Of a stretch of DNA of 64,000 bases, positions 4,571 through 8,693 are shown in pieces. The notes below the pieces were generated by a model. The model was not told where the DNA came from. It searched no databases and saw only the letters and a program-made list of their open reading frames with translations. A program made the position numbers and the translations under genes. The stretch is from Sulfuritalea sp. (GTDB lineage Bacteria > Pseudomonadota > Gammaproteobacteria > Burkholderiales > Rhodocyclaceae), in assembly GCA_044359585.1 (NCBI GenBank), contig JBIKLV010000010.1:3319-67318 (forward strand), in the 5' to 3' direction. How positions within the stretch are numbered: position 1 is the first letter of the stretch; every line of letters begins with the position of its first letter.

Positions 4571-5989
4571 TCAGCCCGAACGCCCGTTGCCCAGCCCGTG
4601 CTTGTCCATCCGGTAGCGCAGAGTGTCGCGGCTGACACCCAGTTCGCGCGCGGCCTTCGAGACGTTGCCGCCGGACACGGCGAGCGCCTGCAGCAGCATT
4701 TCGCGCTCTACGCGGTCGAGCGTCGAGCCGCCATCGGCGGGATCGGCCGCGCTGGCGGTCGTTGCAGTCGCCACTCCTGGCGGCGCGGTCGGAGCTGCGG
4801 CCGGCAACGCGGGCTGCGGCAGCATCAGCGCACCGGCGGCGATCACGTCGGCGCCGGCCAGCAACACCGCCTGCTCGACCACGTTGCGCAATTCGCGCAC
4901 GTTGCCGGGCCAGGCGTGCGCGGCCAGCGCGGCTTCGGCGGTGGAATCGAAGCGGATGCCCGGCTTGCGGTAGCGGCGCGCGAATTCGGCGAGGAAGTGG
5001 CGCGCCAGCACCAGTGCGTCGCCGTCACGGTCGCGCAGGGCCGGCACGCGGATCTTGAGCACGGCCAGGCGGAAGTAGAGGTCGGCGCGGAACGCGCCCT
5101 GGCGTATCCGCTCTTCGAGGTCCTGGTTGGTCGCGGCGAGCACGCAGACATCCACCTTGCGCTCCTGCAATGAGCCGACGCGGCGCAGTTTGCCGTCCTC
5201 GATCACCTTGAGCAGCTTGGCCTGCATGCCGACGTCCATTTCGCCGATCTCGTCGAGGAACAGCGTGCCGCCGTCGGCGGCTTCGATCAGGCCGTGCTTG
5301 CGTTCCTTGGCGTCGGTGAAGGCGCCGCGCTCATGGCCGAACAGTTCGGATTCGAGCAGGTTGGCCGGAATCGCCGCACAGTTGATTTCGATGAAGGGAC
5401 GGTCGCGCCGGGCACTGCCGAAATGGCAGGCGCGAGCGACGAGTTCCTTGCCGGTGCCGGTCTCGCCGATGATCAGGACCGGCGGCACGGCGCCCTTGAC
5501 ATCGACATCGGCGATGCGCGCGATGCGTTCCCTGAGTTCGTGCATCACCGCGCTGTCGCCGACGATGGCGCCCAGGCCGCCGGTGCCGCGTTCGCGCGTT
5601 TCGTAATACTGCAGGCGCGTGGCTTCCAGCTGGCGCTGCGCCAGTTGCACCAGGCGCTGGCGCAGGTCGCCGAGCGCGACGGGCTTGGTCAGCAGGTCGT
5701 TGGCGCCGGCCTTCATCGCCTCGACCGCGAGTTCGATGCTGCCATGGCCGGTGATCATCAGGATGGGCACCGCGGCGTCCAGCGCACGGATGCGGGCGAT
5801 CACCGTCAGGCCGTCGATGTCCGGCAGGCGGAAATCGAGCACCACCGCGTCCGGCGAGCATTCGGTGAAGGCGCTGATGCCGGCGCCGCCGGTGGCCGCG
5901 GTGCGCACCGTGTGGCCGCCCTTTTCGAGGAACTTGGCGGCGTTCTTGGAAAATGTCTCTTCGTCGTCGACGATCAGGAAGGTCGCCAT
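4571..5989 (-). CDS. NtrC-family sigma-54 response regulator (REC-AAA+-Fis HTH)
   Basis: REC domain (LIVDDE..VLDFRLPD), Walker A GETGTGKE, ESELFGHERGAFTDA, WPGNVREL, C-terminal HTH. Confidence 0.95.
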   Translation of the reverse strand: MATFLIVDDEETFSKNAAKFLEKGGHTVRTAATGGAGISAFTECSPDAVVLDFRLPDIDGLTVIARIRALDAAVPILMITGHGSIELAVEAMKAGANDLLTKPVALGDLRQRLVQLAQRQLEATRLQYYETRERGTGGLGAIVGDSAVMHELRERIARIADVDVKGAVPPVLIIGETGTGKELVARACHFGSARRDRPFIEINCAAIPANLLESELFGHERGAFTDAKERKHGLIEAADGGTLFLDEIGEMDVGMQAKLLKVIEDGKLRRVGSLQERKVDVCVLAATNQDLEERIRQGAFRADLYFRLAVLKIRVPALRDRDGDALVLARHFLAEFARRYRKPGIRFDSTAEAALAAHAWPGNVRELRNVVEQAVLLAGADVIAAGALMLPQPALPAAAPTAPPGVATATTASAADPADGGSTLDRVEREMLLQALAVSGGNVSKAARELGVSRDTLRYRMDKHGLGNGRSG

Positions 5990-5992
5990 GGT

Positions 5993-7345
5993 TCAGGCCC
6001 TGGGCAAAACTACGCTGACGACCGTGCCGCCCGCCTCGCCGGCGCCCAGCGCCAGCGTGCCGCCGTAGCGCTCGACCACCCGGCGTGCCAGCGGCAGCCC
6101 GAGGCCGAGCCCCTTGGGCTTGGTCGTGAAAAACGGTCGGAACACCTGCTCGCGGATGTCCGGCGCGATGCCGCCGCCGTGGTCGGCGATGTCGACCCGC
6201 AGGCGGTTGCCGTCATGATCGGCCAGCCCGACCCGGCAACGGCCACCGGCCTGCATCGCCTCGGCGGCATTGCTCAACAGGCTGTCGAACACCTGCCGCA
6301 GCAGCGCCATGTCGGCGGCGACGATGGGCTTGGCTGCCGCGCATTCGCAGACCAGCGTCAGGCCCTGCCGCTCGAAGGCCGGCAGGTGGTCGGCGACGCA
6401 GCGCACCAGCAACTCGCCGAGGTCGCCAGGGGCGCCGGATTGCATCGCCTTGCCGGAAAAGTTCAGCAGCTCGACGATGCGCGCCGATATCCGGTCGACT
6501 TCGCGGATGATGTCCTGGGCCTGCTCCGAACAATCCTCGGTCGGCGCTTCGAGCGCCAGTTCCGCGGCGGAGCGGATCGACGACAGCGGGTTGCGGATGT
6601 TGTGCGCCACCGACGAGGTCAGCTCGCCGACCACCGCAAGCGTCTCGGCCTCGACCAGGCGCGCATGCTGCAGCTGTATCGTGCTGTCGGCGCGGCGGAT
6701 CATCCAGAACAGCGTGAGGTAGAGCAGCAGCGCGCTGCCCAGCGCCGTCAGGCCGACCTGCACCCGCCCTTCGTTGATTGCTTCCGATAGCGCCAGCGGC
6801 GCCTTGTAGAGCTCGACGACGCCAACTACCTGGCCGTCGGGGCGCTTCACCGGAATGTAGCTTTCGACGAAGAATTCGATCGACGGATTGAGGCCCTCGT
6901 GCTCGCGCTTTTCCTGGCTCGACGCCGTGATGCGTCCGGCATGGACGACGAGCTCGCCCTTCATGGCATCGTCGAGTTCGTCGTTGTCGGCGAAGCGGCG
7001 CCCGATCAACTGCGGATCGCTGGACCAGAGGACGGACCGGTCCTGGCCGAAGACGTTGGCACGCAACACGTCGCGCATGGTGGACAGATGTTCCACGGTG
7101 TTGCGAAAGCGCGCCGCGAGTTCCGGGTCGCTCGGCCGCGTAAGGAACTCGAGCGAGCCGTCGGCGACCATGATGTTCTGCACGAATTCGCGGCTGATCG
7201 AGGCTTCGCGCTGGAACAGGTGACTGTTGAGGAAGTTGGAGATCAGCCAGACGTTGGCCAGCGCGATCGCGGCAATGACGATCGGGCTGAGCCAGGCGAA
7301 CCAGCGCAGCAGGTTGAATGGTTTGCCGTGTTCCCCGTTTGCCAT
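5993..7345 (-). CDS. Membrane sensor histidine kinase with periplasmic sensor domain
   Basis: Two TM segments flanking ~160 aa, H-box VAHNIRNPL, N box, FFTTKPKGLGLGL. Confidence 0.93.
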   Translation of the reverse strand: MANGEHGKPFNLLRWFAWLSPIVIAAIALANVWLISNFLNSHLFQREASISREFVQNIMVADGSLEFLTRPSDPELAARFRNTVEHLSTMRDVLRANVFGQDRSVLWSSDPQLIGRRFADNDELDDAMKGELVVHAGRITASSQEKREHEGLNPSIEFFVESYIPVKRPDGQVVGVVELYKAPLALSEAINEGRVQVGLTALGSALLLYLTLFWMIRRADSTIQLQHARLVEAETLAVVGELTSSVAHNIRNPLSSIRSAAELALEAPTEDCSEQAQDIIREVDRISARIVELLNFSGKAMQSGAPGDLGELLVRCVADHLPAFERQGLTLVCECAAAKPIVAADMALLRQVFDSLLSNAAEAMQAGGRCRVGLADHDGNRLRVDIADHGGGIAPDIREQVFRPFFTTKPKGLGLGLPLARRVVERYGGTLALGAGEAGGTVVSVVLPRA

Positions 7346-7385
7346 TGCCTCTACCTTGAATTCCCCGTCCCGGACGCGCCGCGTT

Positions 7386-8360
7386 TTACCAGCTTATCGC
7401 ATACGCCAGCGAGACCTGGCGATAGCGATTCTCGTAGAGCGCCAGGTTCGCGCGATTGGTGGCGGCGATCGCCTCGAACTTGAGGGTTTGTCCCGGCGCG
7501 ACTTCATAGGCGCCGCCGAATTCGACCGTGGTCGCGCGGTCGCGGCGCGCCGGCAGGCCGGGCAGCGGCGTATCGTCGAACACGGCGGATTGCCATGACA
7601 TGCCCGCGCTCCAGCCGATGCCCCATTGCCTGCGGTCCAGCGACACCCGGAAGAACGCGTTGCGATTCGCCAGTTCGGCGAAGCCGCGATCGTTGCGTTC
7701 GCGGCCGACGGCGATCTCGAGGTCGATCGCATCGATGCCCGGCACGGGCTCGACCTGGCGTCGCTTCACCATGAACAGGGTGGCGGTCGAATCGAGGTCG
7801 ACCAGGTCATCCCAATGGCGATTGGTGCCGCGATCGAGGAACAGCAGCCAGTGATTGCCGGCAAGGTCGCCGGTCGCCCAGTCGGCATGCCAGCCGCGTA
7901 CCGAGCGGAAGCGTTCGCCGGCCACCTCGATCCGCTGCAGGTTGGGCCCAATGCCGAAGTAGCCCCCGGCGAAGGGGGTGCGCAGCATCGGATTGACCGA
8001 TGCCATGGCGAAATCGAGTGCCTGCACGCCCGGCGCCCGCTTGTAACGAATGTCGCCACCCAGAGCCAGACGCGATTCGGCGCCGAGCGCCCAGTCGGTG
8101 AATCCGCTGATGCCTCCCTGGTAATGCGTTCCGGCCAGGCGATCGAAGCCGTCGAGGCGGATCAGCACGCCTTCGGGAGAAATGCGGACCAGCGGGGACG
8201 TCTGCGACTCATGGCCGACGCCGAACTCGGCGGCGAAGTTCGTCGTGGTCGGCGGCCCGGATACCGGACCGGCGACTTCGGCCAGCGCCGGCAAGGCCAG
8301 GGCAAAGCCGAGCGCCGCCAGGCCGCGCGCTGCGCGAGCGGCCAGCGTGGCGACGATCAG
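7386..8360 (-). CDS. Outer-membrane beta-barrel protein, Slam/DUF560-like C-terminus
   Basis: Signal peptide ending LPALA-EV, amphipathic beta strands, terminal NRANLALYENRYRQVSLAYAISW; start probably the in-frame CTG at 8360 overlapping the upstream TGA (alternative ATG 8429). Confidence 0.65.
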   Translation of the reverse strand: MIVATLAARAARGLAALGFALALPALAEVAGPVSGPPTTTNFAAEFGVGHESQTSPLVRISPEGVLIRLDGFDRLAGTHYQGGISGFTDWALGAESRLALGGDIRYKRAPGVQALDFAMASVNPMLRTPFAGGYFGIGPNLQRIEVAGERFRSVRGWHADWATGDLAGNHWLLFLDRGTNRHWDDLVDLDSTATLFMVKRRQVEPVPGIDAIDLEIAVGRERNDRGFAELANRNAFFRVSLDRRQWGIGWSAGMSWQSAVFDDTPLPGLPARRDRATTVEFGGAYEVAPGQTLKFEAIAATNRANLALYENRYRQVSLAYAISW

Positions 8361-8545: not shown

Positions 8546-8630
8546 GATAGTTCTCCATTGGGGTCAGGGTCTTCGGGCTTGAATCCCGGTCACACCAGAC
8601 TCCATCGGAGCCGGTGTTGCCCAACTGGTA

Positions 8631-8646
8631 TGCAGAAACAGTGCCA
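8631..8646 (-). promoter_or_regulatory. Sigma-54 (-24/-12) promoter
   Basis: TGGCACTGTTTCTGCA with exact GG-N10-GC spacing, ~85 bp upstream of the peptide start. Confidence 0.8.
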
Positions 8647-8662
8647 GCCTGGAACGTGCTCA

Positions 8663-8693
8663 CAAGAAACTGATTTATATATGAAATAAAAAG
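8663..8693 (-). promoter_or_regulatory. IHF binding site with adjacent A/T tract
   Basis: AATCAG-TTTC-TTG (8663-8675, minus) matches WATCAR-N4-TTR, just upstream of the -24 element. Confidence 0.6.

Follow-up and report, generated by a model that had tools for sequence, protein, structure and literature searches.

A sigma-54-controlled cassette encoding a small exported peptide and a Slam-like outer-membrane barrel: a candidate secretion module in Sulfuritalea and other Burkholderiales

Introduction

What is the function of an operon that begins with a very short open reading frame (ORF) for an exported peptide and continues with genes for an outer-membrane barrel, a sensor histidine kinase and an NtrC-type sigma-54 activator? 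This question is raised by a stretch of 64,000 nt from contig JBIKLV010000010.1 of Sulfuritalea sp. (assembly GCA_044359585.1), which is referred to here as the window. An initial annotation of the window described four tightly packed minus-strand genes and interpreted them as a peptide autoinduction loop. The packing is exactly as described: the barrel frame overlaps the end of the peptide gene, 40 nt separate the barrel stop codon from the kinase gene, and 3 nt separate the kinase stop codon from the regulator gene.

The evidence presented here leans, by a small measure, towards a secretion module, that is, a self-contained accessory cassette which brings its own two-component system to a sigma-54 promoter and encodes a Sec-exported peptide together with a minimal Slam-like translocon. 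The parts are of known kinds; their combination, the peptide family and the barrel family, which lacks the tetratricopeptide repeat (TPR) domain, are undescribed. No comparable system turned up in literature searches; the author of the initial annotation likewise knew of none with this four-part architecture.

Results

A total of 21 distinct loci were examined, whose hosts are all uncultured metagenome-assembled genomes (MAGs) or metagenome contigs. In all of them, the peptide gene immediately precedes the barrel gene, with an overlap or a gap of no more than about 50 nt. In 16 of the 21 loci, this pair is adjoined by a regulator with the sigma-54 contact loop GAFTDA and by a kinase whose periplasmic domain is homologous (41-92 % identity). 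Four gene orders occur: peptide-barrel-kinase-regulator in the window and in an Accumulibacter-like group, kinase-regulator-peptide-barrel in L020, L021 and L023, a divergent order in L025, and peptide-barrel-(second peptide)-NinX-like-kinase-regulator in L010 and L012. The flanking genes vary from locus to locus. That the linkage outlasts rearrangement in unrelated neighbourhoods strongly indicates a joint function of the four genes. The co-occurrence and order proposed as a check in the initial annotation are thus constant for the peptide-barrel pair and for the promoter, which was present at every locus inspected, and partial for the kinase and regulator.

The hosts are Betaproteobacteria of lake water, groundwater and sludge and belong to Accumulibacter, Rubrivivax, Comamonadaceae and other Burkholderiales. 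Within the host genus, a clear barrel homolog was found in 3 of 37 genomes, with one further weak match, and the close barrel family was found in 2 of 401 genomes sampled from the order. Therefore, the cassette is a rare accessory element.

The mature peptide GNSTSLGHGVKCTWVLVSSVNNTNTYKQVCRKGV has 34 amino acids (AA) and a mass of 3.6 kDa. It contains two cysteines and no acidic residues, its isoelectric point is 9.7 and its net charge is about +4. The peptide family comprises 47 clusters at 90 % identity, with mature lengths of 34 to 37 AA among the locus partners. The signal peptides vary freely, and conservation begins exactly at the AxA signal-peptidase site. Between families whose barrels share 35-50 % identity, the mature peptide is about 90 % identical. 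At the codon level, pairs of conserved type-1 orthologs show synonymous changes in up to 19 of the 34 mature codons versus 0-5 non-synonymous changes; pairs that include the diverged second copy of L008 show up to 9 non-synonymous changes in the mature peptide. Judged by these codon changes, the peptide is under strong purifying selection and the small ORF is a real gene. Searches of the peptide against Pfam and NCBIfam matched no family and gave no similarity to ZraP, CpxP or Spy.

The barrel protein carries a signal peptide ending in ALPALA, followed by EVAG, so that the mature protein starts near position 8279; its C-terminus, YRQVSLAYAISW, ends in an aromatic W. The AlphaFold2 model has 14 strands, with predicted local distance difference test (pLDDT) values of 80-94 in the barrel, and its top Foldseek matches include OmpG and CymA, which both have 14 strands. 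Among 5.8 billion proteins, the close barrel family forms 11 clusters at 90 % identity; a library clustered at 50 % identity contains about 60 of its representatives at E<1e-30. A search of PDB sequences with the barrel profile gave 0 matches, and a single weak match to PF04575 was seen among close family members (P0136, E 0.0098). A more distant relationship became apparent when the family profile was compared with 1.8 billion representatives, as this retrieved proteins of about 440 AA consisting of TPRs and a C-terminal barrel at E-values of 1e-10 to 1e-4. Two out of ten of these (P0137, P0167) score above the cut-off of the SlipAM family PF04575; in a set of 16 such proteins, 9 match SlipAM and 13 match TPR families. 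Aligned with hhalign, the barrel family and the TPR-barrel group reach a probability of 100 and an E-value of 1.5e-40 over 288 columns, which is the entire barrel. Because of the profile search, the SlipAM matches and this alignment, the barrel is classified, at the level of sequence profiles, as a remote TPR-less member of the superfamily of Slam proteins and type 11 secretion systems (T11SS).

Published surveys of DUF560 proteins describe neither a peptide cargo nor a link to two-component systems (PMC8406197, PMC12282271). The window barrel is too divergent to have entered these surveys.

The most conserved stretch of the barrel, GxGHESQTSPLVRxSPEGxLIRL at residues ~70-90 (window 8180-8240), is also the sole part of the model with low confidence (pLDDT 48-57). 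This segment may be a plug or a loop that contacts the peptide.

The control region upstream of the peptide gene follows a common plan. At every related locus inspected, a TGGCAY-N5-xTGCx motif lies 60-100 nt 5' of the peptide gene, and one or two TGGGK-N6-MCCCA palindromes are found upstream of it at the same relative position. This layout is kept where the kinase and regulator genes precede the peptide gene and where both are missing from the locus. The sigma-54 motif as stand-alone evidence was rejected, as the window contains 1 match versus 0.85 expected by chance, which is not significant; the motif derives its weight from its conservation across the related loci. The correctly spaced -24/-12 promoter reported in the initial annotation is thereby confirmed. 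The accompanying candidate site for integration host factor (IHF) is in place, located between palindromes and promoter in most loci, although the window copy AATCAGTTTCTTG deviates from the consensus WATCAANNNNTTR by one mismatch, a G for A at position 6. Perfect copies at the equivalent position, for example TAAGTTCTTGATT, are present in the relatives L010, L012, L020, L021, L022, L024 and L025. From the promoter position, transcription is expected to start at about 8621, which gives a 5' untranslated region of about 75 nt; the Shine-Dalgarno sequence GGAGA of the peptide gene lies 8 nt upstream of its start codon. No sigma-70-like promoter was found between 4300 and 8900, hence no basal promoter of the kinase and regulator genes can be named.

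The host genome of 4.39 Mb encodes rpoN and contains 41 sigma-54 sites of the strict pattern and five TGGGK-N6-MCCCA palindromes. The window operon is the sole place in this genome where such a palindrome lies 40-250 nt upstream of a sigma-54-like site. These patterns lead to the inference that the palindromes are bound by the GAFTDA regulator, with the window operon as its only target in the host genome. Activation of its own operon by the regulator, as suggested by the initial annotation, is very probable given the palindromes conserved at all loci and the single genomic site, while self-activation of the kinase and regulator genes is limited to some gene orders. Since these two genes sit upstream of the promoter in L020, L021 and L023, self-activating feedback is not universal.

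The domain composition of the two regulatory proteins is clear. In Pfam, the regulator matches Sigma54_activat (2.1e-66), Response_reg (9.5e-28) and HTH_8 (5.2e-16), and the kinase matches HisKA (4.1e-11) and HATPase_c (1.5e-21). None of the named equivalogs AtoSC, ZraSR, NtrBC, PrsKR and LuxO reaches its NCBIfam cut-off. The regulator scores 388 for AtoC (cut-off 714), 374 for NtrC (559), 360 for PrsR (503), 343 for LuxO (800) and 336 for ZraR (760), and the kinase scores 166 for AtoS (646), 142 for ZraS (479) and 76 for PrsK (300). In public sources, homologs of the kinase are named HydH, which is ZraS. The periplasmic part of the kinase (~residues 38-195) is modelled as a five-stranded sheet preceded by a long helix (pLDDT 88), and this model matches the extracytoplasmic PAS/PDC domains of WalK, CitA, DctB and KinD; in the predicted structure, the sensor is a periplasmic PDC fold. 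Its conservation equals that of the DHp domain and exceeds that of the ATPase domain. Its family contains at least 238 clusters. A distant second paralog of the sensor is encoded elsewhere in the host genome (G000:C38:31683-32153; 26 % identity, E 2.9e-9), and G023 has one too.

The sigma-54 contact loop of the regulator reads GAFTDA (window 5300-5320, residues ~224-229), which is the same in all 17 orthologs examined. Among the other enhancer-binding proteins of the host genome, ten have GAFTGA and two have GAYTGA. A published survey of sigma-54 activators includes GAFTDA in its tolerated variants, with DVU2106 of D. vulgaris (PMC4641369). [quoted passage not shown]

Expression of the cassette is seen in an ortholog from Accumulibacter (L005), which is matched at 95-100 % by metatranscriptome contigs from sludge and bioreactors. 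One RNA contig (6751-7534 of L005) reaches from the peptide gene into that of the barrel, and the kinase and regulator genes are covered by further ones. This shows transcription of the cassette, and co-transcription of its peptide and barrel genes, in sludge Accumulibacter. The transcription start could not be called in L005, as the contig ends scatter over 6634-6751 and one library may contain DNA. RNA runs of the window's own organism cover almost none of the stretch.

The related loci show several variations on the cassette. L008 has two tandem peptide copies (6192-6380 and 6768-6956), each with its own enhancer and promoter, and G063 (C594, C583, C123) encodes two barrels and four peptides, the latter falling into two subtypes. 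In clade B, the conserved peptide subtype sits with the barrel, and a third, more variable subtype (REG..SIGxG[VI]KC...C[RY]KGV) with its own sigma-54 promoter adjoins the kinase and regulator (L010/L012, G063). L010 and L012 also encode a 144-AA protein with a Phage_P22_NinX domain 5' of the kinase (L010:3867-4301, L012:8755-9189), which is absent from the window and has its own sigma-54 promoter TGGCATGGTCTATGCA; in L012, this further promoter stands ahead of the NinX-kinase-regulator genes. L012 and L013 have a common left flank and peptide-barrel pair, and a block of about 4.5 kb (~8186-12800 of L012) with the second peptide, the NinX-like gene, the kinase, the regulator and cytochrome b and c genes is found only in L012. 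The two loci represent a natural presence/absence polymorphism of the regulator block. In L020 and L023, peptide and barrel are in one frame with a single TGA between them, and a read-through fusion is possible.

Other loci combine the two-component system with different genes. In L028 (8750-10917), the orthologous kinase and regulator genes are followed by the palindrome TGGGGTATATCCCCCA, the sigma-54 promoter TGGCACGGGTTATGCT and a gene for a 664-AA RTX-type protein (HemolysinCabind). Here, the two-component system appears to have acquired another secreted protein as its target. In L027 (5416-5850; Rubrivivax sp. A210), the kinase and regulator genes are divergent from a gene for a 78-AA exported protein with a PEP-CTERM-like C-terminal anchor, …PSSALALMGVAVLLGARRFER. 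This gene lies behind the palindrome TGGGGCAAATTGCCCA and a weak -24/-12 motif, and type II secretion/pilus-like genes adjoin.

The coordinates of all features of the window operon are listed in Table 1. The hairpin downstream of the regulator gene lies about 130 nt 3' of its stop codon and is common to this gene and the convergent PEP-CTERM gene. A consensus terminator scan did not list it, its T-run being too short, and flagged the enhancer palindrome as a hairpin.

Table 1. Features of the sigma-54-controlled operon and its control region in the window, in the direction of transcription.
Feature	Position	Strand	Remarks
Candidate enhancer (upstream activating sequence) palindrome TGGGTCATATCACCCA, 16 bp	8742-8757	(-)	extra half-site GTGGGGCAAATC at 8724-8735
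IHF-like site AATCAGTTTCTTG	8663-8675	(-)	within an A/T-rich stretch, between enhancer and promoter; read from sequence
Sigma-54 promoter TGGCAC-N5-CTGCA	8631-8646	(-)	GG 8644-8645, GC 8632-8633
Peptide gene, 62 AA	8357-8545	(-)	signal peptide 8462-8545 (Sec, ends PASA); mature 34 AA 8360-8461
Outer-membrane barrel gene	7386-8429	(-)	start uncertain: ATG 8429, CTG 8375 or CTG 8360
Sensor histidine kinase gene, 450 AA	5993-7345	(-)	transmembrane segment 1, periplasmic PDC, transmembrane segment 2, HisKA, HATPase_c
NtrC-family response regulator/enhancer-binding protein gene, 472 AA	4571-5989	(-)	REC, sigma-54 AAA+, Fis-type HTH_8
Probable intrinsic terminator AACCCCGC-CGAA-GCGGGGTT-GTTTT	4413-4437	(-)	GC-rich hairpin and T-run; read from sequence

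The operon is bordered by a convergent plus-strand gene at 3684-4394 for a protein with a PEP-CTERM sorting signal (PF07589, E 9.8e-10), a neighbour that is not kept at other loci. Directly upstream of the enhancer region, the minus-strand gene at 8854-9462 encodes an acyl carrier protein phosphodiesterase (AcpH, PF04336, E 7.7e-56), which is unrelated to the cassette at other loci. An identity of the two-component system with PrsK/PrsR, prompted by the PEP-CTERM neighbour, was rejected due to scores below the cut-offs and the lack of conservation of this neighbour.

Discussion

As a secretion module, the cassette would work as follows. The phosphorylated NtrC-type regulator would bind TGGGK-N6-MCCCA about 100 nt upstream of the promoter, IHF would bend the DNA, and the -24/-12 promoter would fire. 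The first product would be the cationic 34-residue peptide, exported by Sec and presumably closed into a beta-hairpin by a Cys12-Cys30 disulfide in the periplasm. The barrel, whose gene overlaps the peptide gene and is probably translationally coupled to it, would then move the peptide to the cell surface or into the medium, by analogy with T11SS, and the peptide would be the smallest T11SS-type cargo proposed. With the gene order of the window, the transcript would continue into the kinase and regulator genes, and induction would be self-reinforcing because these are co-transcribed with their target.

Passage of the peptide through the barrel, which the initial annotation had already suggested, is plausible in view of the homology of the barrel to Slam/T11SS proteins and the invariable position of the peptide gene directly upstream of it. 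The stimulus of the PDC domain is probably an envelope or extracellular cue and need not be the peptide, since the same kinase family occurs in genomes without the peptide. The peptide itself could be a signal, a surface factor or an agent of competition.

Several observations weigh against a secretion module. The window barrel gave no usable match in Pfam (E<=0.1), including PF04575, or in NCBIfam. No TPR domain was matched in it either, and the mature protein begins about 10 residues before the first strand. Cargo proteins of T11SS are Sec-dependent and usually encoded beside the barrel gene, and the known ones are recognized via a C-terminal 8-strand barrel domain (TbpBBD-like). With only 34-37 AA, the mature peptide cannot hold such a domain. 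The overlap of the genes, if it reflects coupling, could equally mean a stoichiometric complex of peptide and barrel. Furthermore, the start codon of the barrel gene is uncertain in the window. From each candidate start, the barrel frame overlaps the end of the peptide gene. ATG 8429 is the sole canonical start 5' of the barrel signal peptide and arises within the peptide gene from its invariant Lys-Cys codons; CTG 8360 would create a CTGA overlap with the peptide stop codon, and the barrel homologs start at or past this stop. On the regulatory side, GAFTDA is a non-canonical sigma-54 contact loop. Finally, the cassette is known from uncultured MAGs and metagenome contigs alone, and the RNA evidence is at the level of contigs, with one library that may contain DNA.

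The most serious alternative is the autoinduction loop of the initial annotation, in which the exported peptide is the ligand of the kinase PDC domain and its accumulation activates the regulator and hence the operon. The linkage of the four genes through four gene orders, the conservation of the sensor, which would fit a conserved ligand, the near-invariance of the peptide and a regulon of one operon in the host genome are all consistent with it, and positive feedback is inherent in the gene order of the window. The variable peptide of clade B beside the NinX-like, kinase and regulator genes also resembles the inducer-peptide units of Gram-positive bacteriocin loci. This interpretation is, however, weakened by the separate occurrence of its components. 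Rubrivivax sp. A210 (G061) has the kinase (57-63 % sensor identity) and the regulator and neither peptide nor barrel genome-wide. Conversely, L008, L011, L013 and G083 have peptide-barrel pairs without an adjacent kinase, and in G083, a closed genome of 4.47 Mb with a divergent pair, no homolog of the kinase sensor was found at E<=1e-15. In G062, a kinase with 40 % sensor identity is encoded elsewhere in the genome. In the sample of 401 genomes, the sensor occurs in 18, versus two for the close barrel family, and the kinase tree, whose backbone is unresolved, leaves linked and unlinked kinases unseparated. L028 and L027 place the same palindrome and sigma-54 promoter before unrelated exported proteins.

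The properties of the peptide and the location of the sensor add to these objections. Pheromones normally diversify together with their receptors, as in the agr and com pherotypes, whereas the window peptide is about 90 % identical across families. The sensor is periplasmic, and a released peptide of 3.6 kDa cannot return through general porins, so that the kinase could detect it only before export or after its re-entry into the periplasm. Because kinase and peptide occur apart, the peptide is nearly invariant and the sensor is periplasmic, autoinduction is possible, although it is not the best explanation and is considered rather unlikely. The same doubt applies to the corresponding model of a Gram-negative pheromone circuit, in which the hairpin is released via the T11SS-like barrel and sensed by the PDC domain either during its release or once it has come back in through the barrel. 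In such a circuit, as in class II bacteriocin loci, the kinase-adjacent subtype of clade B would act as inducer, and the role of effector would fall to the conserved subtype.

A further alternative is an envelope-stress module of the ZraPSR/CpxP type. ZraPSR consists of a small exported protein with a sigma-54 promoter under adjacent two-component control. The cassette matches this logic overall. In such a module, the kinase would sense envelope damage or a metal, the peptide would be a periplasmic protectant or feedback modulator of the kinase, and the barrel would be a co-induced channel rather than a peptide exporter. The closest similarities of the kinase and regulator are to AtoS/ZraS and AtoC/NtrC/ZraR, all of them below their equivalog cut-offs, the public naming of homologs as HydH points in the same direction, and a general cue would suit the occurrence of the two-component system without the peptide in other genomes. 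However, the peptide resembles none of ZraP, CpxP and Spy, and its multiple copies, each with a promoter, suggest a product in high demand. Such a module would also leave unexplained why peptide and barrel are so strictly paired and why the barrel is homologous to protein translocons rather than porins. This makes an envelope-stress module improbable.

Least probable of all is that the peptide is a fixed partner of the barrel (a plug, lid or assembly factor) in a two-part channel or surface structure from which nothing is secreted: overlapping, translationally coupled genes in many loci and the extreme conservation of both the peptide and barrel segment ~70-90, which could be a mutual interface, would suit this, but extra peptide copies occur without extra barrels (L008, L012, G063), barrels fall to 35 % identity around a nearly fixed peptide, which is unusual for a co-evolving pair, and the homology points to translocons.

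If the barrel exports the peptide, as a secretion module implies, T11SS would extend to a minimal translocon without TPRs, which bears on cargo recognition, and to a cargo ten times below any known size without the C-terminal barrel domain held to be the export signal. Feedback of the peptide on the kinase, if it exists, would place the cassette among very few peptide-based signalling loops of Gram-negative bacteria. The peptide and barrel represent two families without a Pfam or NCBIfam model in environmentally important uncultured bacteria, including the phosphate-removing Accumulibacter. In addition, the combination of palindromes, IHF site and -24/-12 promoter with one genomic target is attractive as an orthogonal sigma-54 switch and provides a test case for activators of the GAFTDA type.

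Comparison with known systems

Thanatin and arenicin are antimicrobial peptides that form beta-hairpins with a single disulfide. The window peptide is like them in shape only, being short and cationic (net +4), with one Cys pair around two strand-like segments. It differs in being bacterial and Sec-exported; the hairpin is putative and no sequence relation is claimed.

The PrsK/PrsR system of floc-forming Betaproteobacteria (XrtA/PEP-CTERM) also places an NtrC-type regulator over exported surface proteins in the same bacterial groups, and a PEP-CTERM gene lies next to the window operon. In contrast, the window regulator reaches 359.9 bits versus the required 502.6 (TIGR02915) and the kinase 76 versus 300 (TIGR02916), and the kinase has 450 AA compared to about 680 AA in PrsK.

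ZraP-ZraS-ZraR (HydH/HydG) of Enterobacteria likewise pairs a membrane kinase, whose periplasmic sensor has about 160 AA, with an NtrC-type activator and has a small exported, sigma-54-driven target beside both. The sensors are, however, not detectably similar, as the ZraS match spans only kinase residues 173-449. The peptide is unlike ZraP, and the window additionally differs by the outer-membrane barrel within the unit and by the GAFTDA loop.

The Gram-positive agr, com and class II bacteriocin loci (pln/spp) likewise combine a small exported peptide, an exporter, a kinase and a regulator with positive feedback, and some of these loci have several paralogous peptides, one of them by the kinase and regulator. 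They use a double-glycine leader with an ABC exporter and a LytTR/OmpR-type regulator, whereas the window cassette has a Sec signal peptide and a sigma-54 activator. Furthermore, the window peptide has an outer membrane to cross, no immunity gene accompanies it, and it is near-invariant in contrast to pherotypes.

The Slam/T11SS family (DUF560, PF04575; Neisseria Slam1, Xenorhabdus NilB, HrpB) provides the comparison for the export step. Compared to these proteins, the window barrel is without the N-terminal periplasmic TPR and falls below the Pfam threshold, and the partner is a predicted hairpin of 34 AA without the 8-strand barrel domain that marks known cargo. The cassette also differs by its dedicated sigma-54 two-component control and by its occurrence in MAGs of free-living Betaproteobacteria only. 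Common to both are the 14-strand barrel with its RERN / RRDR / SRNxSN-LY motifs and the gene for a Sec-dependent partner immediately beside the barrel gene.

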